A DNA stretch of 64,000 bases. Origin: Pseudomonadales bacterium. GTDB taxonomy: Bacteria; Pseudomonadota; Gammaproteobacteria; Pseudomonadales; Azotimanducaceae. Shown in pieces: positions 9,622 to 18,807 of the stretch. Under the pieces are notes generated by a model. It made no database searches, had not been told where the DNA came from, and was given only the letters and a program-made list of their open reading frames with translations. The first letter of the stretch is position 1. Every line of letters begins with the position of its first letter. Location of the stretch: positions 2,795,549 through 2,859,548 of the forward strand of contig OY843767.1 of the NCBI GenBank assembly GCA_963693125.1. The letters are read 5' to 3'. The position numbers were made by a program, and so were the translations under genes.

Positions 9622-9667
9622 TGTGTATAAAGATGGCCTGGCGTAAGAGATTGTGCTTTTTATCGCC

Positions 9668-10261
9668 CTATTCAAACGGACGATAATGTGGATGGTCTGC
9701 AATCGCCAGCATTTGTTTATCGCCACTACTATCACCGTATGCATGTATCACCTCATAATCATCAAGGGACAAACAGGCCTTGATGCGATCCACCTTTTCC
9801 TGGCCATGACAATTGGCGCCTTCAAATCGTCCGGTCAATATGCCACCTTGTTGTGCCATACGGGTACTTAACAATTCAAGCCCTTCTGCCTGGCAAAAGC
9901 CCTTGAGCCAGGTGTCAATTGATGCGGAGACCAAAATTACCCGATGACCCTGTGTCTTGTGCCAGCGCAGCTTTTCTATTGCTTTGGGCCTGATGATCCT
10001 GACGATCCGCGCTTTGGTATATTGTTCACCGAGTCGCTCAATTTTTTCAACCGTCCAGCCTTTGAAATAAAATCCAAGTAATTTTTCTTTGGCGACGTTG
10101 TTTTTCATCAGTTTCAATAGAAAAGCAGCCAGTATCGGACTCATAACCAACAAGCCCAGGTAATAACGTGGTTTGCCCACGGCATATTGAATAAAATCCA
10201 ATAACGAGTCTTTGGTCGTTATGGTGCCGTCAAAGTCGAACAGTGCCAGTTCTTTTTTCAC
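9668..10261 (-). CDS. HAD-IB family phosphatase (last gene of the island operon)
   Basis: 197-aa ORF with GTG start. HAD motif I FDFDGTIT and C-terminal GDSSGD. Confidence 0.8.
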   Translation of the reverse strand: MKKELALFDFDGTITTKDSLLDFIQYAVGKPRYYLGLLVMSPILAAFLLKLMKNNVAKEKLLGFYFKGWTVEKIERLGEQYTKARIVRIIRPKAIEKLRWHKTQGHRVILVSASIDTWLKGFCQAEGLELLSTRMAQQGGILTGRFEGANCHGQEKVDRIKACLSLDDYEVIHAYGDSSGDKQMLAIADHPHYRPFE

Positions 10262-10295
10262 CGGAAATAATTCCCTGTCAGTACCCTTCGGTTCA

Positions 10296-11957
10296 CTAAT
10301 TGGAGTTGATCATCTGGTAATAAGACAGACGGTTTTTCGGTTCAAAACTATCTTTAAGCAGTTGTGCCATTGACGACGATATCCCCAATGACTTCTTAAA
10401 AGCGTATATGTGACGATGAGTCCCATCTTCTTTATAATCGACTAAATAAATATCATAGTCATCATACTGGCTTTGTAAGAATTCAATGCTTACGGTAGCC
10501 GCTAAAGAAACCTTTGAAAGCCCAGATCGCTGAGCGTCAGTGGGTGGACTTTTTAGTTTGAAATGTTGCTTATTGTTGTCAGTCACAGGGAGCACCTTTT
10601 CACCGGATACCACCAACGGTGCAGGGTCAATTTGGCGATTGTGATGAAACAGTATGACATCTGGTGACAGTTGTTTCATGTATTGCACATCAATAATGTT
10701 TTTGGCCGGGTACACCGAATTAAGCCCCACCAGATCAACCAAAACATGCCCCCCCCCCCCCCCGATATTGATTCCATTCCAGTATGAAAAGCGCCCTGCT
10801 TCTGTTACTGCTATGGTCAAATCCTTCGGCAGCTTATCGTGCATGGTGTAAGAGGCCCGATTGAAATAGCTAAAAGTCGTCACTTTCATCGACTTGTTGA
10901 CATGATACCCGGCAATGACAACAAAGCCGACTAAATAGACCACCAGCCCCTTCGATAACAGGGCACCAGCTTTCTGTTCTTTGAATCTGGCCAGCAAAAG
11001 CTGTACCAGGACAAAATAGGCCACGATAAATATCGGTGCCTGAAATCTGTAACCGATATTTTGCGATTGATGGACCATCGTCAATGCCACAAATAGCAAT
11101 ATCAGCGGAGACATCAGAACCAGATAGTGCGTTATTTTTTTCGACATGAGTAACAATAAGGCACAGGGTAAGAAGGTATAAAGGTTGGAAACGCCCCATC
11201 TCAGGTTGGTTCTCACGCTCTCGGTTAAATCGGTATGGCCTTTAACATACAAGGGTAACGGCAACAAATTACCAAAGTAATGATAGCGCCAGACGAAATA
11301 AACAACCCCGATAACAAACGCAACTGACATGCCGAGCAGGTAGGTTTTGAATTGCCTGCGCTTATAGACCCTGACCAGACCTGTCAAGGTAAATGCCACG
11401 CCCATGATCACCCCATCGGGCCTGAATAGTGCAATGATAATGGCCAGGTAAGGCACTTTGCTCAGGTGTTCTTCCCGGCTGGTGGCGACAAACGTCAGCA
11501 ATACCAACGCCATATACAAATAGACACTAAAACCGCTCACGGCAGCACGCAGTGGTAATTGCACTGCCCACAATACAACAAACAGACTCATCAAACCGAT
11601 GGTTTTTTTATCCGTCAGTTGTGTACGCATAATTTCATGGGATATCACAGTGGTGATGATGCCCACGCCAACGGAGTTGAGTAAAATCGCCGAGGTGCCG
11701 ACATCCAATCCACTGAGCCCGACTCCAGCCAGCAATAGCAGCCATAAAAAATCTGTTGCCCCTTCTGCACGAGGACCACCAGGATAATAACTAATACCAT
11801 TACCACTGAGTATATTGTCTACATAAATAAACAATATGTAGGCATCTTCATGAAAGTGCCCGTTAGAGATCAGCCACAGGTTATATATAAAAAATACCGA
11901 GGCGCCAACGACACCAATCAACCACAACTTTGCTGGCGAATGCTCAACTGGATTCAT
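10296..11957 (-). CDS. Polytopic membrane protein, GT-C-like candidate arabinofuranosyltransferase, tandem paralog 1 (carries G15 tract)
   Basis: 553-aa ORF. About 10 hydrophobic spans fill residues 10-350, with an acidic HEDAY motif right after TM1. A ~200-aa C-terminal soluble domain follows. Sits directly downstream of the DPA-type donor genes. Confidence 0.65.
   Translation of the reverse strand: MNPVEHSPAKLWLIGVVGASVFFIYNLWLISNGHFHEDAYILFIYVDNILSGNGISYYPGGPRAEGATDFLWLLLLAGVGLSGLDVGTSAILLNSVGVGIITTVISHEIMRTQLTDKKTIGLMSLFVVLWAVQLPLRAAVSGFSVYLYMALVLLTFVATSREEHLSKVPYLAIIIALFRPDGVIMGVAFTLTGLVRVYKRRQFKTYLLGMSVAFVIGVVYFVWRYHYFGNLLPLPLYVKGHTDLTESVRTNLRWGVSNLYTFLPCALLLLMSKKITHYLVLMSPLILLFVALTMVHQSQNIGYRFQAPIFIVAYFVLVQLLLARFKEQKAGALLSKGLVVYLVGFVVIAGYHVNKSMKVTTFSYFNRASYTMHDKLPKDLTIAVTEAGRFSYWNGINIGGGGGHVLVDLVGLNSVYPAKNIIDVQYMKQLSPDVILFHHNRQIDPAPLVVSGEKVLPVTDNNKQHFKLKSPPTDAQRSGLSKVSLAATVSIEFLQSQYDDYDIYLVDYKEDGTHRHIYAFKKSLGISSSMAQLLKDSFEPKNRLSYYQMINSN
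10749..10763 (-). repeat. Homopolymeric G15 (C15 on plus strand) inside paralog 1, encoding GGGGG
   Basis: Counted directly: cc at 10749-50, ten c at 10751-60 and ccc at 10761-63. Paralogs 2 and 3 have only ggggg at the equivalent site. Confidence 0.9.
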
Positions 11958-11978
11958 AGATTCATGCCCTTCGGTTCA

Positions 11979-13625
11979 CTAATTGGAACTGATCATTTGG
12001 TAATAAGACAGATGGTTTTTCGGTTCAAAACTATCTTTAAGCAGTTGTGCCATTGACGACGATATCCCCAGCGACTTCTTAAAAGCGTATATGTGAGAAC
12101 GAAGCTCATCTTCAGGACGATAGATTAAATAAATATCATAGTCATCATACTGGCTTTGTAAGAATTCAATGCTTACAGTAGCCGCTAAAGAAACCTTTGA
12201 AAGCCCAGGTCGCTGAGCGTCAGTGGGTGGACTTTTTGGTTTGAAATGTTGCTTATTGTTGTCAGTCAGAGGGAGCACCTTTTCACCGGATACCACCAAC
12301 GGTGCAGGGTCAATTTGGCGAGCGTGATGAAACAGTATGACATCTGGTGACAGTTGTTTCATGTATTGCACATCAATAATGTTTTTGGCCGGGTACACCG
12401 AATTAAGCCCCACCAAATCAACCAAAACATGGCCCCCGGATTGATTCCAGTATGAAAAGCGTCCTGCTTTTGTTACTGCTATGGTCAAATCCTTCGGCAG
12501 CTTATCGTGCATGGTGTAAGGTACCAGATCCCTATGGTTAGAAGTCGTCATTTCCATCGACTTGTTGACATGATACCCGGCAATGACAACAAAGCCGACT
12601 AAATAGACCATCAGCCCCTTCGATAACAGGGCACCAGCTTTCTGTTCTTTGAATCTGGCCAGCAAAAGCTGTACCAGGACAAAATAGGCCACGATAAATA
12701 TCGGTGCCTGAAATCTGTAACCGATATTTTGCGATTGATGGACCATCGTCAATGCCACAAATAGCAATATCAGCGGAGACATCAGAACCAGATAGTGCGT
12801 TATTTTTTTCGACATGAGTAACAATAAGGCACAAGGCAAGAAGGTATAAAGGTTGGAAACACCCCATCTCAGGTTGGCTTTCACGCTCTCGGTTAAATCG
12901 GTATGGCCTTTAACATACAAGGGTAACGGCAACAAATTACCAAAGTAATTATAGCGCCAGACGAAATAAACAATCCCGATAACAAACGCAATTAACATGC
13001 CGAGCAGGTAGGTTTTGAATTGCCTGCGCTTATAGACCCTGACCAGACCTATCAGGGTAAATGCCACGCCCATGATCACCCCATCGGGCCTGAATAGCGC
13101 AATGATAATGGCCAGATAAGGCACTTTGCTCAGGTGTTCTTCCCGGCTGGTGGCGACAAACGTCAGCAATACCAACGCCATATACAAATAGACACTAAAA
13201 CCGCTCACGGCAGCACGCAGTGGTAATTGCACCGCCCACAATACAACAAACAGACTCATCAAACCGATGGTTTTTTTATCCGTCAACTGTGCACGCATAA
13301 TTTCATGGGATATAACAGTGGTGATGATGCCCACGCCAACGGAGTTGAGTAAAATCGCCGAGGTGCCGACATCCAATCCACTGAGCCCGACTCCAGCCAG
13401 CAATAGCAGCCATAAAAAATCTGTTGCCCCTTCTGCACGAGGACCACCAGGATAATAACTAATGCCATTACCACTGAGTATATTGTCTACATAAATAAAC
13501 AATATGTAGGCATCTTCATGAAAGTGCCCGTTAGAGATCAGCCACAGGTTATATATAAAAAATACCGAGGCGCCAACGACACCAATCAACCACAACTTTG
13601 CCGGCGACTGCTCAACTGGATTCAT
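11979..13625 (-). CDS. Polytopic GT-C-like membrane protein, tandem paralog 2
   Basis: 548-aa ORF. By eye it has only ~10 differences from paralog 1 in the first ~350 residues. Confidence 0.65.
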   Translation of the reverse strand: MNPVEQSPAKLWLIGVVGASVFFIYNLWLISNGHFHEDAYILFIYVDNILSGNGISYYPGGPRAEGATDFLWLLLLAGVGLSGLDVGTSAILLNSVGVGIITTVISHEIMRAQLTDKKTIGLMSLFVVLWAVQLPLRAAVSGFSVYLYMALVLLTFVATSREEHLSKVPYLAIIIALFRPDGVIMGVAFTLIGLVRVYKRRQFKTYLLGMLIAFVIGIVYFVWRYNYFGNLLPLPLYVKGHTDLTESVKANLRWGVSNLYTFLPCALLLLMSKKITHYLVLMSPLILLFVALTMVHQSQNIGYRFQAPIFIVAYFVLVQLLLARFKEQKAGALLSKGLMVYLVGFVVIAGYHVNKSMEMTTSNHRDLVPYTMHDKLPKDLTIAVTKAGRFSYWNQSGGHVLVDLVGLNSVYPAKNIIDVQYMKQLSPDVILFHHARQIDPAPLVVSGEKVLPLTDNNKQHFKPKSPPTDAQRPGLSKVSLAATVSIEFLQSQYDDYDIYLIYRPEDELRSHIYAFKKSLGISSSMAQLLKDSFEPKNHLSYYQMISSN

Positions 13626-13685
13626 AGATTCATGCCCTTAAACTTCCATTGCAGTATGGTTCATCTATCAATGCCTTTCAGTTCA

Positions 13686-15332
13686 CTAATTGGAACTGAT
13701 CATTTGGTAATAAGGCAGACGGTTTTTCGGTTCAAAACTATCTTTAATCAATTGTGCCATTGACGACGATATCCCCAGTGATTTCTTAAAAGCGTATATG
13801 TAAGAAAAAAACTCATTTCCAGAATGATAGACTAAGTAAATATCATAGTCATCATACCGGCTTTGCAAGAATTCAATGCTTACAGTAGCCGCTAAAGAAG
13901 CCTTTGAAAGCCCAGGTCGCTGAGCGTCAGTGGGTGGCCTTTTTAGTTTGAAATGCTGCATATTGTTGTCAGTCAGAGGGAGCACCTTTTCACCGGGTAC
14001 CACCAAAGGTGTAGGGTCAATATGGTAATATTGATGAACCATCATGACATCTGGTGACAGTTGTTTCATGTATTGCATATCAATAGTGTTTTTGGCCGGA
14101 TACACAGAATTAAGCCCCACCAAATCAACCAAAACATGGCCCCCGGATTGATTCCAGTATGAAAAGTGCCCGGCTTCTGTTACTGCTATGGTCAAATCCT
14201 TTGGCAGCTTATCGTGCATGGTGTAAGGGGCTTTATTGCCATGGTGAAAAGTCACCGCATACATCGACTTGTTGACATGATACCCGGCAATGACAACAAA
14301 GCCGACTAAATAGACCACCAGCCCCTTCGATAACACGGCACCAGCTTTCTGTTCTTTGAATCTGGCCAACAAAAGCTGTACCAGGACAAAATAGGCCACG
14401 ATGAATATCGGTGCTTGAAATCTGTAACCGATATTTTGCGATTGATGGACCATCGTCAATGCCACAAATAGCAATATCAGCGGAGACATCAAAACCAGAT
14501 AGTGCGTTATTTTTTTCGACATAAGTAACAATAAGGCACAGGGTAAGAAGGCATAAAGGTTGAAAACGCCCCATCTCAGATTGGTTTTCACGCTCTCGAT
14601 TAAATCGGTATGGCCTTTAACATACAGGGGTAACGGCAACAAATTACCAAAGTAATGATAGCGCCAGACGAAATAAACAACCCCGATAACAAACACAATT
14701 AACATACCGAGTACGTAGGTTTTGAATTGCCTGCGCTTATAGACCCTGACCAGACCTATCAGGGTAAATGCCACGCCCATGATCACCCCATCGGGCCTGA
14801 ATAGCGCAATGATAATGGCCAGATAAGGCACTTTGCTCAGGTGTTCTTCCCGGCTGGTGGCGACAAACGTCAGCAATACCAACGCCATATATAAATAGAC
14901 ACTATGGCCGCCCACGGCAGCAACCAGTGGTGATTGCACCGCCCACAATACAACAAACAGACTCATCAAACCGATGGTTTTCTTATCCGTCAGTTGTGCA
15001 CGCATAATTTCATGGGATATCACAGTGGTGATGATGCCCACGCCAACGGAGTTGAGTAAAATCGCCGAGGTGCCGACATCCAATCCACTGAGCCCGACTC
15101 CAGCCAGCAATAGCAGCCACAGAAAATCTGTTGCCCCTTCCGCATGAGGACCACCGGGATAATAACTAATACCATTACCACTGAGTATATTGTCTACATA
15201 AATAAACAATATGTAGGCATCTTCATGAAAGTGCCCGTTAGAGATCAGCCACAGGTTATATATAAAAAATACCGAGGCGCCAACGACACCAATCAACCAC
15301 AACTTTGCGGGTGACTGCTCAACTGGAGTCAT
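13686..15332 (-). CDS. Polytopic GT-C-like membrane protein, tandem paralog 3
   Basis: 548-aa ORF. Its start overlaps the dprE2-like stop by 4 nt (ATGA). Confidence 0.65.
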   Translation of the reverse strand: MTPVEQSPAKLWLIGVVGASVFFIYNLWLISNGHFHEDAYILFIYVDNILSGNGISYYPGGPHAEGATDFLWLLLLAGVGLSGLDVGTSAILLNSVGVGIITTVISHEIMRAQLTDKKTIGLMSLFVVLWAVQSPLVAAVGGHSVYLYMALVLLTFVATSREEHLSKVPYLAIIIALFRPDGVIMGVAFTLIGLVRVYKRRQFKTYVLGMLIVFVIGVVYFVWRYHYFGNLLPLPLYVKGHTDLIESVKTNLRWGVFNLYAFLPCALLLLMSKKITHYLVLMSPLILLFVALTMVHQSQNIGYRFQAPIFIVAYFVLVQLLLARFKEQKAGAVLSKGLVVYLVGFVVIAGYHVNKSMYAVTFHHGNKAPYTMHDKLPKDLTIAVTEAGHFSYWNQSGGHVLVDLVGLNSVYPAKNTIDMQYMKQLSPDVMMVHQYYHIDPTPLVVPGEKVLPLTDNNMQHFKLKRPPTDAQRPGLSKASLAATVSIEFLQSRYDDYDIYLVYHSGNEFFSYIYAFKKSLGISSSMAQLIKDSFEPKNRLPYYQMISSN

Positions 15333-16060
15333 ATACTCATGCCCTTAAACTTCCATTCAGGAATGGATTTTATGATCAGCATGATGTACTTCCAAATCCA
15401 GCGACAATACAACTCATTACGATTGCCCTGTTGGGCTGTAAAAATCGCCTTTGCAACTTCTTCCGGCTCTGCTGTAAGTTTTTCCGGCAGGCCCATACCT
15501 TTGGTCATCCTGGTGTTAACAAAGCCAGGTTTAACAGTCAAAACACGCACCTTGTGATCATGCAGACGGTTGCGTAGACCGGATAAATAGGTGGTCAGGG
15601 CAGCCTTGGCAGAACCATATAGATAATTGGCCTTACGTCCGCGATCGCCTGCCACCGAACTGATACCAACGATGAACCCTGAACGGCGTGCCGCAAAATC
15701 ATCTGCGATGATATTAAGCATACTGACCACCGAAGTGTAATTGGTGTCTAGAATTGTTCTTGCTTCAACAAAATCGCTTTGCGCTTTTTCCTGGTCGCCC
15801 AGATAACCCACAGCACTTATCACACCCAGGGGCTTTTCCTCCAGGCTATCGTAAAATGCCTGATGGTTGTCAAAATCCAGCATATCCAACTCCGCACACC
15901 TGACCTTGCGACCAAAACGCACAGAAATATCCTGCGCCAATGGCTCAAGGCTACCCGCTTGTCGAGCCGCCAGATACAGGTCGTAACCATTCTCGGCATA
16001 TTGCCGCGCCAGGGCCCTGGCGATATCACTTTTGGCGCCAATTATTAATATGTAACCCAT
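15329..16060 (-). CDS. dprE2: DprE2-like SDR (polyprenylphospho-2-keto-pentofuranose reductase)
   Basis: 243-aa ORF. ISSVAGDRGRKANYLYGSAKAAL, VRVLTVKPGFVNTRM and the C-terminal IPEWKFK tail resemble M. tuberculosis Rv3791 as I recall it. Confidence 0.7.
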   Translation of the reverse strand: MGYILIIGAKSDIARALARQYAENGYDLYLAARQAGSLEPLAQDISVRFGRKVRCAELDMLDFDNHQAFYDSLEEKPLGVISAVGYLGDQEKAQSDFVEARTILDTNYTSVVSMLNIIADDFAARRSGFIVGISSVAGDRGRKANYLYGSAKAALTTYLSGLRNRLHDHKVRVLTVKPGFVNTRMTKGMGLPEKLTAEPEEVAKAIFTAQQGNRNELYCRWIWKYIMLIIKSIPEWKFKGMSI

Positions 16061-16061
16061 G

Positions 16062-17360
16062 TTATAGCTCTAGTCGTTTCGATTGCATGGAATGAAAAGT
16101 TTTGTTCATTTGGTATTTGCATCGCAGGGCCCGGAATTTATCGACGTCTGGATAACCCTGCTCAAAAACCTGCCTGGATACCCGGGCATCCTTGGCCAGA
16201 TATATTCGACCGCCATGAGCCAACACAATTTCGTCAAGTTTATCAAGCAGGGTAAAAAGACCCGGCTCTATTTTGAAATCGAGTGCCAATGAATACCCTT
16301 CCAGTGGGAAAGACAGGTAATTTTCATTCGCAGGACCGTACAACTTGAGCACGGCTAAAAAAGAGCCCTTGCCTGAGTCAGCAATCGTTTTTAGAATTAC
16401 CGACAAGCCTTCAAAACTGGCTTCTTTGGGTAGAATAAATTGATACTGGGTAAAACCATTTTTTCCGTAAATCCGATTCCAATGACCCACAGCATCGAGC
16501 GGAAAGAAGAAACTGTCGATAGACACCTTTTGCTCACTTACCGCCGCTTTGACTTTGCCGTAATATAGCCAGTTAAACGACTTCACCGACAGGGTATTGA
16601 GAGCAAAACCCGGAAGACTAAAAGGCACCGCTGGTTTGCTACTACTTTTATAGTCAAGTTTGCCCTTGGGCAAAAAATCGCCCACCCTCAGCAGGCAGCG
16701 ACCAATATCCGCGCCTTTGGCCAGACAATCAATCCAGGCGACTGAATAAGGGCTGTCAGCGTACTGCTCAAAAGCCTCGAACGTCTCACGTAAATTGGCT
16801 GTTTTAATGGTCGTTTGCCCTATCGTTTTAGCGCCAATTCGTTTGAGTCTGATACGTGCATCAAGCACAATACCTGTCAATCCCATCCCACCACAGGTAG
16901 CATGAAACAAGTCACTGTGCTCGGTGGCAGAGCAGGTCACGATATCACCATTGGGTAACATCAAGCGAAAATCCACCAGGAATTGACTAAAACAACCTGC
17001 CTGATGATGATTTTTGCCATGAACGTCACTGGCAATAGCACCACCGACGGTGATAAGTTTTGTGCCAGGTACCACCTGGAGAAACCAACCTTTGGGCACT
17101 ATAGAACGGATGATATCCGCCAGTAAGACACCGGATTGAACATGCAACACACCCAATTGGTCATCAAAGTGCAAAAACAGATCTCTCGGTCGCATTTGCA
17201 CCATGGCCCTGCTCAGCGCACTGTCGCCATAACTTCGTCCATTACCATAGGCAATTAACGCATTGTGCTCACGTAACATGGTACGCAATTGATCTAAATC
17301 ATCGAATTTCAATGCCTGACCATCACAGGTCGGATAATTGCCCCAACTACGTAAGTTCAT
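16062..17360 (-). CDS. dprE1: DprE1-like FAD-dependent polyprenylphosphoribose 2'-oxidase
   Basis: 432-aa ORF. GNGRSYGDSAL, PGTKLITVGGAIASDVHGKNHH, FTQYQFILP, and C-terminal GGRIYLAKDARV...SKRLEL parallel Rv3790 as I recall it. Confidence 0.75.
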   Translation of the reverse strand: MNLRSWGNYPTCDGQALKFDDLDQLRTMLREHNALIAYGNGRSYGDSALSRAMVQMRPRDLFLHFDDQLGVLHVQSGVLLADIIRSIVPKGWFLQVVPGTKLITVGGAIASDVHGKNHHQAGCFSQFLVDFRLMLPNGDIVTCSATEHSDLFHATCGGMGLTGIVLDARIRLKRIGAKTIGQTTIKTANLRETFEAFEQYADSPYSVAWIDCLAKGADIGRCLLRVGDFLPKGKLDYKSSSKPAVPFSLPGFALNTLSVKSFNWLYYGKVKAAVSEQKVSIDSFFFPLDAVGHWNRIYGKNGFTQYQFILPKEASFEGLSVILKTIADSGKGSFLAVLKLYGPANENYLSFPLEGYSLALDFKIEPGLFTLLDKLDEIVLAHGGRIYLAKDARVSRQVFEQGYPDVDKFRALRCKYQMNKTFHSMQSKRLEL

Positions 17361-17755
17361 GCAGCCTGCTCCGTGAAGACATATTTTCTATCGAGAAAAT
17401 ATTTCATCACATAACCGACAGATAGCCCGATCGCAGCCCCGACATATTTGGCCGCTTCATGATCAAAGTACCAGTCAAACCAAATTTCGGTGCCCCAAAA
17501 AATGAAAGTCGTGAAACCACCCGTCAAAGTATAAGAAACAAACTTCCTGGCGTCCTGAGTTTTAGACGTTGGTTTATGATGGAAAATAAACTTTTTGTCG
17601 AGCACATATTTACATACAAGTCCGGCACCTGTACCATTACACATGGCCAAAACCAGGCCCCCGGTGCCGTCATAAACCCACAGGCTGAGGTACTGGAACA
17701 ACAAATTAAGTAAAATAGAGACAATCGCAAACAGGGTATATTTAAAGGCTATCAT
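17357..17755 (-). CDS. GtrA family membrane protein (Rv3789-like)
   Basis: 132-aa ORF with four hydrophobic spans. Overlaps both neighbours by 4 nt. Confidence 0.7.
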   Translation of the reverse strand: MIAFKYTLFAIVSILLNLLFQYLSLWVYDGTGGLVLAMCNGTGAGLVCKYVLDKKFIFHHKPTSKTQDARKFVSYTLTGGFTTFIFWGTEIWFDWYFDHEAAKYVGAAIGLSVGYVMKYFLDRKYVFTEQAA

Positions 17756-18693
17756 TGGTAAATGATCCAGCCAAAAGAAGCCACCCAGCCAACAATGGTG
17801 AGTTGCAAAAATGTATCTTTGAGTACTATGCGGGTCGGCGAACCACTGTCTTTTTCAACAAAGGCGATTTGTAGGTAGCGCAAGATACCCAACATCACAA
17901 AAAATGCTGTGAGGTAAAGATATTCACTATGCCATTTGGCAGTGACATCGCCAGACGTGGTGTATTGAATATACGAAACAATCACCACTGTTGCTGTGAT
18001 CATCATCGCCACATCGATAAATTGCAAATTATAACCATCGATAACCGTGCGCATTTTTTTGCCGGTATCGAGAAAAATAAGGGTATCGTCACGGCGCTTG
18101 GCCAATGCCATGAAAAGGGCCAGCAGAAAAGTTATGATCACTATCCACATCGACAAATGAATACCGGTAACAACAGAGCCGACAAATAACCGCAATACAA
18201 ATCCGATAGCAATAATGTACACATCGATTATGGCAATGTGTTTTAAATGAAAACTGTAAGCGATGTTCATCACCACATAAGCCAGTAAAATGGCACCGGC
18301 CTGCAATGAGGCTGAAGCGATAAGTCCCCCCCCAACAATAAACAACGAGGTCATTAATATCAGCGCTACCTTACTTGTGACAGCGCCACTGGCCAAAGGT
18401 CGAAAGCGCTTTTCAGGATGCTGACGGTCATCTTCGATATCGCAATAATCGTTAACAATATAAATACCACTGGCACATATACAAAACGCAGCAAATGCCA
18501 AAAAGGACTGCCCAAGAAGCGCCATATTTTGAATATTGCCGGAAAAAAACAAAGGCAGAAAAATAAACAGGTTTTTAATGTATTGATGCGGACGCATCAG
18601 TTTAATGATGTGCTTCATGAATGATGATTCTTGCCTGAATGAGCTTTTGAAACTACTGGCTTTTGCTTGTTTGCCAGGGAGCCGTAACTTCAT
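17752..18693 (-). CDS. UbiA-family polyprenyl-phosphate 5-phosphoribosyltransferase (Rv3806c-like); start uncertain (18693, 18618 or TTG 18726)
   Basis: NDYCDIEDDRQHPEKRFRPLASG is the DPPR-synthase-type first Asp-rich motif. MRPHQYIKNLFIF forms the N-terminal helix. The protein is polytopic. The ATG at 18693 has TAAGG 8 nt upstream. Confidence 0.75.
   Translation of the reverse strand: MKLRLPGKQAKASSFKSSFRQESSFMKHIIKLMRPHQYIKNLFIFLPLFFSGNIQNMALLGQSFLAFAAFCICASGIYIVNDYCDIEDDRQHPEKRFRPLASGAVTSKVALILMTSLFIVGGGLIASASLQAGAILLAYVVMNIAYSFHLKHIAIIDVYIIAIGFVLRLFVGSVVTGIHLSMWIVIITFLLALFMALAKRRDDTLIFLDTGKKMRTVIDGYNLQFIDVAMMITATVVIVSYIQYTTSGDVTAKWHSEYLYLTAFFVMLGILRYLQIAFVEKDSGSPTRIVLKDTFLQLTIVGWVASFGWIIYQ
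18326..18333 (-). repeat. G8 homopolymer inside the ubiA-like gene (codons VGGG)
   Basis: Plus strand reads taagt-cccccccc-aacaata. It translates as IVGGGLI on the minus strand. Confidence 0.9.
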
Positions 18694-18807
18694 AGAAACC
18701 TTATAGATAAACGGCTTCAAATTCAAGCAAAATGGGCATGACGATGCACCGATGGCGGACGAACTGTTTCCCTCCGCAGGTTACCAGTATGTGCTCTATG
18801 GTATGGG

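Follow-up and report, generated by a model that had tools for sequence, protein, structure and literature searches.

Mycobacteria make polyprenyl-phosphate arabinofuranose through the decaprenyl-phosphate arabinose (DPA) pathway, whose gene set comprises the DPPR synthase Rv3806c, DprE1/DprE2 and several arabinofuranose (Araf) transferases with the membrane glycosyltransferase fold GT-C, such as AftB. To our knowledge, GT-C enzymes with lipid-linked pentofuranose donors have been recognised outside mycobacteria only recently, and the determinants of their acceptor specificity are largely unknown. A different precedent is given by Neisseria lgt and the lipooligosaccharide (LOS) and capsule contingency loci of Campylobacter, in which tandem related glycosyltransferase genes, some with poly-G tracts, produce glycan variation at the level of strains and cells. 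Here we analyze an array of three unannotated membrane glycosyltransferase genes, about 90% identical to one another and arranged head to tail on the minus strand of a 64,000-nucleotide stretch of Pseudomonadales DNA (contig OY843767.1, positions 2,795,549 to 2,859,548; "the window" is this whole stretch). The Neisseria and Campylobacter loci differ from the array in fold class and in donor chemistry, and they belong to host-associated pathogens rather than to an uncultured environmental gammaproteobacterium.

Periplasmic pentofuranose systems of Gram-negative bacteria use the same gene set as mycobacteria (PMC11127046; bioRxiv 10.1101/2020.04.19.049825). The GT136 three-component systems, exemplified by Citrobacter youngae ORF12, combine a polyprenyl-phosphoribose synthase, a phosphatase, an optional DprE1/E2 epimerase and a flippase with a periplasmic GT-C enzyme (PMC11127046), and the TfpW pilin arabinosylation system of P. 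aeruginosa also uses a GtrA-like protein (bioRxiv 10.1101/2020.04.19.049825). The genes around our array encode the same kinds of components, but GT136 and TfpW systems have one GT-C enzyme each and no array. ORF12 furthermore has a C-terminal beta-rich immunoglobulin-like carbohydrate-binding module, a MATE flippase and a fused synthase-phosphatase (PPPRS-PRP), whereas here the C-terminal domain is alpha/beta, the candidate flippase is GtrA-like and the HAD and UbiA genes are separate; on these descriptive grounds membership of GT136 is not supported.

With the mycobacterial pathway the array shares the kind of adjacent donor-synthesis genes and the presence of multiple paralogous transferases with differing acceptor or linkage roles, and AftB is its best whole-protein structural match (PDB 9dlf/9dlh at the top of a Foldseek search, 531 aligned columns, E = 5.6e-6), both having a multi-helix transmembrane (TM) domain capped by a C-terminal alpha/beta periplasmic domain (PMC12041299). 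It differs in a marginal sequence relation to AftB that is confined to the N-terminal part, in a TM-score of about 0.5, in its gammaproteobacterial host, in having nearly identical tandem paralogs instead of ancient dispersed genes, and in its HAD-type phosphatase and poly-G tract. In H. pylori, the fucosyltransferase genes futA/futB vary in phase through a homopolymer and recombine within the genome into chimeras (PMC2583950), and a C-terminal segment of about 10 residues (CNDAHYSALH) sets the acceptor type (PMC4202792). These too are paralogous glycosyltransferases with a frame-switching homopolymer tract, chimeras and a short specificity segment; they are, however, soluble Leloir GT-B enzymes (GT10) at separate loci with one segment and a tract near the 5' end, where the array encodes membrane GT-C enzymes head to tail, with three segments and a tract in the middle of the periplasmic domain. 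By analogy, futA/futB is the closest counterpart in evolutionary behaviour, and the mycobacterial arabinan enzymes together with the Gram-negative three-component pentofuranose systems are the closest in presumed function.

We propose that the array consists of functionally distinct AftB-like GT-C enzymes in which three short segments (patches A, C and D) are positively selected specificity determinants, while the backbone is homogenised by conversion and the last copy carries a poly-G switch; on balance we think this the probable reading. The copy types alpha, beta and gamma, with delta in relatives, would be distinct tandem transferases. The neighbouring genes would supply polyprenyl-phosphate arabinofuranose, and the enzymes would most likely pass its arabinofuranose to a glycan or protein in the periplasm or at the surface. 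Once the genes had duplicated, segments A, C and D would have undergone a burst of amino-acid replacement under positive selection on conserved Tyr/His positions, and each version would since have been kept by purifying selection. The patches would set acceptor or linkage specificity, and the copies would perform different steps or make different products. The remaining sequence would be continually exchanged by gene conversion and unequal crossing-over, giving both the near-identical backbone and the sharp patch edges, and expansion of the poly-G tract would move the last copy in and out of frame. Compared with the preliminary description of this DNA, what is new is that the types are fixed across 12 genomes, that the patches sit on conserved motif residues, that copy number is 2-4 and that one "patch" is probably a poly-G switch.

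Copy 1: 10296-11957, minus strand, 553 residues, type gamma, last in the array; TM domain about residues 1-360, periplasmic alpha/beta domain 361-553 (from the open reading frame, the AlphaFold2 (AF2) model and Foldseek)
Copy 2: 11979-13625, minus strand, 548 residues, chimera: beta at patches A and D, gamma-like at about gene nucleotides 1261-1350 including patch C
Copy 3: 13686-15332, minus strand, 548 residues, type alpha, first in the array, adjoins the DprE2-like gene

Patches and patch types

In the three-way nucleotide alignment, 138 of the 1647 ungapped columns are variable (8.4%), and there is in addition a 15-column indel. The variable columns are strongly clumped: they make up 20 of 36 in patch A, 17 of 33 in patch D and 9 of 25 in patch C, against 0-3 in the 36-nucleotide flanks on each side. 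The densest 36-nucleotide window holds 20 of them, where 5000 permutations give a mean of 8.3 and a maximum of 13 (p<0.0002), and the variance-to-mean ratio of differences per 20 nucleotides is 2.44 compared to 0.91 when permuted. The preliminary description had claimed that divergence between the copies is not uniform, and this claim stands, as do all the peptides and coordinates that it quoted.

Patch A: copy 1 10851-10886, copy 2 12519-12554, copy 3 14226-14261, minus strand; copy 1 residues 358-369, KVTTFSYFNRAS
Patch C: copy 1 10632-10655, copy 2 12315-12338, copy 3 14022-14045, minus strand; copy 1 residues 435-442, ILFHHNRQ
Patch D: copy 1 10410-10442, copy 2 12093-12125, copy 3 13800-13832, minus strand; copy 1 residues 506-516, VDYKEDGTHRH
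TM-region dimorphic segment: copy 3 14904-14933, SPLVAAVGGH; copy 1 11529-11558 and copy 2 13197-13226, both LPLRAAVSGF; minus strand

Mapped onto the AF2 model of copy 1, patch A starts at the end of the last TM helix, extends into the first periplasmic helix and takes in the family motif Y364-I-N-x-F-P. Patch C comprises the last part of strand 434-438 and the loop that follows, with the family-conserved H438 and position 440, and patch D is a beta-hairpin between strands 501-506 and 516-521 that includes the family-conserved V506, Y508 and H516. From the beta-alpha-beta order, the model suggests that patch C lies at the C-terminal edge of the parallel sheet, near the conserved TEAGR and DLVGLN loops. 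All three blocks are modelled with a predicted local distance difference test score (pLDDT) of 92-98 and are not disordered linkers. The earlier picture of surface-exposed variable loops is not quite right, however: the patches hold the best-conserved periplasmic-domain positions of the wider family, namely Y364 (97%), I365 (77%), N366 (77%), F368 (70%) and P369 (73%) in patch A, H438 (87%) and the likewise conserved A440 in patch C, and V506 (76%), Y508 (74%) and H516 (97%) in patch D. The types differ at just such positions; residues 364/508/516 read as follows.

Family and gamma: Y/Y/H
Beta: H/R/H
Alpha: H/H/Y
Delta: Y/H/Y

Tyr/His clusters are typical of sugar-binding sites. Simulations of AftB, moreover, place its acceptor at periplasmic-domain loops (PMC12041299). 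From the two together we infer that patches A, C and D retune one site that determines acceptor or linkage.

The close relatives (90-96% identity) come from one ENA metagenome assembly, in which 11 syntenic loci (L001-L005 and L085-L090) together with the window provide 34 copies from 12 genomes. Across these, each of patches A, C and D occurs as four discrete types that are nearly base-identical in DNA between genomes; the patches of copy 1, for example, are also carried by its ortholog, the third copy of L001.

Type alpha: patch A YAVTFHHGNKAP, patch C MMVHQYYH, patch D VYHSGNEFFSY
Type beta: patch A E[MV]TTS[ND]H[RQ]DLVP, patch C [LM]LFHQN-L, patch D IYRPED[EK][LF]RSH
Type gamma: patch A KVTTFSYFNRAS, patch C ILFHH[ND]RQ, patch D VDYKEDG[TI]HRH
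Type delta (relatives only): patch A YTATFHYSNKAP, patch C MLFHNGHQ, patch D VYHAGNETFSY

The arrays are composed of these types in six ways.

Alpha-beta-gamma: window, L001
Alpha-beta-delta: L004, L085, L086, L088
Alpha-beta: L005, L087, L090
Alpha-beta-beta: L003
Alpha-alpha-alpha-beta: L002
Alpha-beta, then an alpha/delta chimera as copy 3: L089

Alpha comes first in 12 of 12 genomes, and alpha and beta are both present and intact in all of them. The array, bounded by the DprE2-like and HAD genes, has anywhere from 2 to 4 copies even though the genomes are very close, with flanking genes 97-99% identical; this variation, the within-type duplications and the alpha/delta chimera indicate frequent unequal crossing-over. 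From the base identity of the patches between genomes, the types are fixed and not a product of ongoing hypermutation, and they must predate the split of these genomes. On an ENA contig of 305,114 bp a beta-type copy is seemingly split into open reading frames of 211 and 177 residues (P0121 and P0122); the break lies away from the poly-G site, and this is another disrupted array member.

The TM-region segment behaves differently from the patches. That copy 3 differs here had been seen before, and it does; the direction of change was in one respect reversed in the earlier account, though, as SPLV is the common state in all related genomes and LPLR is derived, occurring in window copies 1 and 2 only. 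The GGH versus SGF dimorphism is unlinked to C-terminal type.

Selection, recombination and the origin of the patches

Synonymous and nonsynonymous differences per site (pS and pN) were counted between the window copies by the Nei-Gojobori method, for patches A, C and D together and for the backbone.

Backbone: pS 0.05-0.10, pN 0.014-0.026, pN/pS 0.2-0.3
Patches A+C+D: pS 0.07-0.15, pN 0.36-0.47, pN/pS 3.5-4.9

Patch and backbone differ by Fisher tests with p from 1e-4 to 1e-7. When changes are placed on a star tree, 46.6 nonsynonymous and 2.9 synonymous ones fall in the patches, whereas neutrality would make the synonymous share 0.206, a ratio of 3.9 to 1 (binomial p=0.004). Differences at codon positions 1/2/3 number 17/10/7 in the patches and 19/12/31 in the backbone; most changed patch codons differ by a single base, at position 1 or 2, and conserved residues within the patches use identical codons between copies. 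The patch DNA, 36-50% different between types, is clearly homologous. Within type alpha, pN/pS of the patches is 0.21, and five DNA haplotypes of patch A encode one peptide. The suggestion of selected determinants in the extracytoplasmic C-terminal domain is thus borne out both by pN/pS between types and by this single peptide within alpha. Low synonymous divergence and single first- or second-position changes argue that the patches are homologous sequence changed in place and not foreign cassettes, and we read them as segments that probably took many amino-acid replacements in place and were then frozen, neither imported nor ancient relics.

The backbone, by contrast with the type-bound patches, is thoroughly shuffled. 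At least 56 recombination events are required (Rm>=56; 113 informative backbone sites, 17 copies), and a statistic like the pairwise homoplasy index (PHI) falls under all 1000 permutations (p<0.001). The first 1060 nucleotides contain no type-linked site; type-linked backbone sites are few and all in the C-terminal part. Window copies 1 and 2 share the derived LPLR and PGGPR, absent from their orthologues, and have zero-difference tracts where the orthologues differ by 3-5. Copy 2 departs from the beta consensus at 12 positions in nucleotides 1261-1350 but from gamma at only 1-2, with the relation reversed at 1081-1170 and 1441-1530. Backbone pS between paralog types is similar to the between-genome pS of the single-copy flanking island genes (0.03-0.085). 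We therefore find each of the signs by which concerted evolution through gene conversion is recognised: incompatible sites, derived states common to paralogs of the same genome, and paralog divergence no greater than ortholog divergence. That paralog pS does not exceed ortholog pS although the types are older than the genome split, taken with the mosaic and the shared tracts, points to gene conversion and unequal crossing-over that homogenise whatever selection does not hold apart. Read in this way, conversion among array members is mostly a homogeniser of the backbone, with only the occasional patch swap (copy 2, patch C). Of the earlier suggestion of segmental gene conversion from other loci, then, the conversion is real and takes place between array members, and the other loci as a source of the patches fall away with the low synonymous divergence and a donor search of the window (blastn with word size 7, tblastn, and fuzzy matching with up to 8 mismatches) that returned only the three copies.

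Could recombination of this intensity by itself account for the patches? Old paralogs might once have been divergent throughout, and conversion might have erased all but those segments where homogenisation is selected against, leaving patches that are old instead of fast-evolving. The strong recombination signal, the type-free N-terminal 1060 nucleotides and a paralog backbone pS no higher than that of orthologs all agree with such relict islands, as do a patch pS 1.5-2 times that of the backbone (for A and D only) and a third-position divergence of 0.10-0.23 in the patches against 0.03-0.06 in the backbone. Paralogs of that age should, however, approach synonymous or third-position saturation (about 0.6-0.7), where the observed pS is 0.07-0.20; the identical codons at conserved patch residues, the prevalence of single first- or second-position changes and the star-tree excess of nonsynonymous change over the neutral ratio are equally hard to fit, and we consider this account unlikely. 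Copying of short blocks from diverged donors elsewhere in the genome or in other organisms would explain the sharp edges and the block-wise replacement, and one true swap did occur between array members, at patch C of copy 2. We nonetheless judge it very improbable: with up to 8 mismatches allowed, the rest of the 64-kb window contains neither a partial copy nor anything patch-like, patch DNA is homologous between types with mostly one change per codon and low synonymous divergence, a donor from among the family members at 45-49% identity would come with numerous synonymous changes, and the arrays of 12 genomes carry just these four types.

Two further explanations concern the process that made the replacements. 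Alpha and beta lack Y364 and Y508, and alpha also lacks H516, while gamma keeps all three, a pattern that would follow if alpha and beta had lost the motif under relaxed constraint and become partly disabled or non-catalytic partners. Relaxation, though, gives a pN/pS of about 1 and not the ratios found; alpha and beta are intact throughout, the alpha patches are under purifying selection, and patch edges are sharp with invariant adjoining residues, so that decay of a redundant site has little to recommend it. Less credible still is programmed hypermutation of the C-terminal domain by a diversity-generating retroelement or another targeted mutator, to which we give almost no weight. It would concentrate variation in a C-terminal domain of ligand-binding type and produce a strong nonsynonymous excess, as seen, but the types are fixed, with hardly a base of difference among 12 genomes, no template-repeat copy occurs in the window, the variable positions involve all bases and the patches are only 24-36 nucleotides long. 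A diversity-generating retroelement target is accordingly rejected, the window having been searched for extra repeat copies and not gene by gene for a reverse transcriptase.

The poly-G tract of the last copy

One of the blocks first listed as rewritten, "WNGINIGGGGGH versus WNQSGGH", proves to be something else, an indel region around a run of 15 G that forms a slippage tract.

Patch B: 10749-10775, with the G run at 10749-10763, minus strand; copy 1 reads GGAATCAATATC and then G15 (27 nucleotides, in frame) between W-N and H-V

The G15 run, which is C15 on the plus strand, sits in the loop that immediately precedes strand 405-408, a point at which pLDDT falls to 75, and the block amounts to five additional codons net in copy 1, with GINIGGGGG in place of QSGG. 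At the same site 29 other copies have CAATCC followed by 4-5 G. In four relatives the last array copy, always of type delta, carries a run of 8, 14, 16 or 24 G that puts it out of frame, yet past the run the proper frame stays open for some 150 codons as far as the normal stop. Run lengths at the site are 5, 8, 14, 15, 16 and 24 overall, and long runs are found at this one site and in the last copy only: no other G or C run of at least 8 occurs in 207 kb of related loci, and G15 is the only homopolymer of at least 9 nucleotides in the window, followed by C8 at 18326-18333. This is what characterises a contingency gene, a homopolymer of about 8 nucleotides or longer within the reading frame whose length varies between close relatives and moves the frame while the remainder stays intact. 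Patch B is probably a slipped-strand phase-variation tract that would act as an on/off switch for the optional last enzyme. In copy 1 the frame is ON, reached by way of several indels totalling +15, which suggests past frameshifts and compensation.

Alternatively, the tract may be no switch at all: G15 and the out-of-frame relatives would then reflect errors of sequencing or assembly at homopolymers, or dead pseudogenes. Homopolymers are error-prone, all the relatives come from one metagenome assembly and 4 of 4 delta copies are out of frame. Yet the gap between the 5 G of 29 other copies and lengths of 8, 14, 15, 16 and 24 is too wide for miscalls, and the longer runs are restricted to one site in the last copy; homopolymer error cannot explain lengths from 5 to 24. 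The window copy is in frame through its several indels and the downstream delta frames are without a stop, and we find error or death an improbable explanation of patch B. As a switch, the tract would make this a likely instance of a phase-variable GT-C enzyme in a free-living bacterium.

The next longest run of the window, C8 at 18326-18333, lies inside the UbiA/DPPR-synthase gene (8 G on the coding strand); the same gene has no G or C run of at least 8 in the 11 related loci. A second slippage-prone site in a donor-synthesis gene would switch the whole pathway.

Protein fold, gene neighbourhood and weight of the evidence

Pfam and NCBIfam scans of the three copies and ten diverse family members return chance-level matches only, and the assignment to a fold comes from structure prediction. 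The AF2 model of copy 1, built on 117 homologues (pLDDT 94.3, pTM 0.94), has helices across residues 8-360 (the membrane domain), a short extramembrane segment at 39-80 and the alpha/beta domain at 361-553, which is the GT-C layout of a large N-terminal domain of 7-13 TM helices plus an extracytoplasmic element after TM1. Further Foldseek matches besides AftB are ALG12 (2.3e-5), STT3 (6.4e-5), PglB (9.7e-5), AftA (3.3e-4) and ArnT (5.7e-4), all with probability 1.00. According to the model, then, the array proteins have the GT-C glycosyltransferase fold. In GT-C enzymes the catalytic acid is located directly after the first helix; here E37 and D38 (motif HEDAY), directly after helix 8-31 (TM1), are invariant in 117 family members and by position are putative catalytic residues.

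Sequence similarity to AftB is not significant, with the 117-sequence profile matching it among PDB sequences at E=0.074 over residues 13-232 only, and this value and the lack of a Pfam or NCBIfam match leave membership of GT89/AftB unsupported. A marginal match in sequence combined with AftB as the best match in structure points to proteins that would work like an AftB-type enzyme while falling outside its sequence family. Modelled alone (pLDDT 93.4), the periplasmic domain has no significant match in the PDB (best E 0.046, probability 0.13).

The wider family is large, with 20,775 representative clusters at E<=1e-3 (1,436 at 1e-30), and neither Pfam nor NCBIfam has a model for it. Scanning one genome per species brings up no close relative, the best being Thiomicrorhabdus at 41%, and tandem copies occur in 1 of 79 distant loci; from these two results the array is specific to this lineage. 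The one such locus (L007, 6332-9533), in Apibacter adventoris, has two members side by side, which match the query at about 35% identity each and neighbour DprE1, DprE2, UbiA and HAD homologues; this pair is an independent, older duplication. Homologues of DprE1, DprE2 and UbiA are found within 8 kb in 11 of 51 long distant loci. Judged from context, namely this co-occurrence and the operon genes listed next, the donor is most likely a polyprenyl-phosphate-linked sugar.

9668-10261, minus strand: HAD-IB phosphatase (Pfam PF12710, 3e-35; TIGR01490)
15329-16060, minus strand: DprE2-like short-chain dehydrogenase/reductase (SDR; NF053786 at 7.8e-49, under the curated cut-off; NF005489 over its cut-off)
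16062-17360, minus strand: DprE1-like flavin adenine dinucleotide (FAD) oxidase (NF053785 at 2.9e-115, 386 bits against a cut-off of 500, thus below it; PF01565)
17357-17755, minus strand: GtrA-family small membrane protein, candidate lipid-sugar flippase (NF037976 at 1.9e-46, over its cut-off)
17752-18726, minus strand: UbiA-family decaprenyl/polyprenyl-phosphate phosphoribosyltransferase, DPPR-synthase-like (NF008978 at 2.3e-66, over its cut-off)

From its context the HAD-IB protein is a candidate polyprenyl-phosphoribose 5-phosphate phosphatase (PMC11127046).

Several observations weigh against the reading of the array as distinct enzymes with selected specificity segments and a switch. About 19 synonymous sites underlie the patch pS, which is 0.11-0.20, at most double that of the backbone, when patches A and D are taken by themselves; some extra patch age is possible on both counts. 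Alpha and beta lack residues that are 74-97% conserved in the family, which may mean an altered or lost function of the site. Any clustering of patches A, C and D around one cavity is conjectural, and with no significant PDB match for the isolated periplasmic domain, solved structures offer no ligand site to carry over. Strong as their matches are, the DprE1-like and DprE2-like proteins fall under the NCBIfam equivalog cut-offs, so the pentose is not certain, and no acceptor gene (pilin or O-antigen cluster) adjoins the island. As to the switch, the G-tract lengths of the relatives come from a single long-read-style metagenome assembly in which homopolymer lengths are error-prone, and all four long-tract delta copies are OFF, which recent inactivation fits too.

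Taken as a natural experiment on the acceptor specificity of GT-C enzymes, the array offers an unusual handle: among enzymes that share about 90% identity, the differences are concentrated in three segments, each of 8-12 residues and placed on motif positions, and patch swaps could therefore test specificity residues directly. A bolder formulation, which we offer tentatively, is that the array is a modular "glycan-editing cassette" of a kind undescribed for GT-C enzymes, with a fixed alpha and beta core, an optional gamma or delta switched by poly-G, a three-segment Tyr/His code (364, 438-440, 508, 516) in a previously unrecognised periplasmic domain, and conversion shuffling the rest. If such a cassette exists, a surface arabinofuranan would be varied between strains and cells, for example against phage; if the Tyr/His code holds, specificity could be read from sequence across a family that numbers more than 20,000 unannotated protein clusters.

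The transferase and donor-synthesis genes form an island of about 9 kb (window 9650-18800) with 44-46% G+C against 54-56% around it. A promoter and terminator scan of the island gives signal at or under shuffled expectation. It sits between steroid and fatty-acid catabolic genes (acyl-CoA dehydrogenases, a KshA-like Rieske oxygenase and KstD-like flavoproteins), and the insertion site is identical in 11 of 11 related loci. The UbiA gene gives a longest open reading frame of 324 residues from a possible TTG start, and most related loci are called from an internal ATG at 288 residues (313 in L086). Each array copy also contains one open reading frame of 109-113 residues in another frame (10870-11199, 12538-12867 and 14233-14574, minus strand), most likely by-products of the repeated gene sequence and not genes. 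In L087 the island is bordered by a helix-turn-helix (HTH)/transposase-like gene upstream of the UbiA gene and by an EamA transporter gene after the HAD gene (1646-2824 and 10385-11233).

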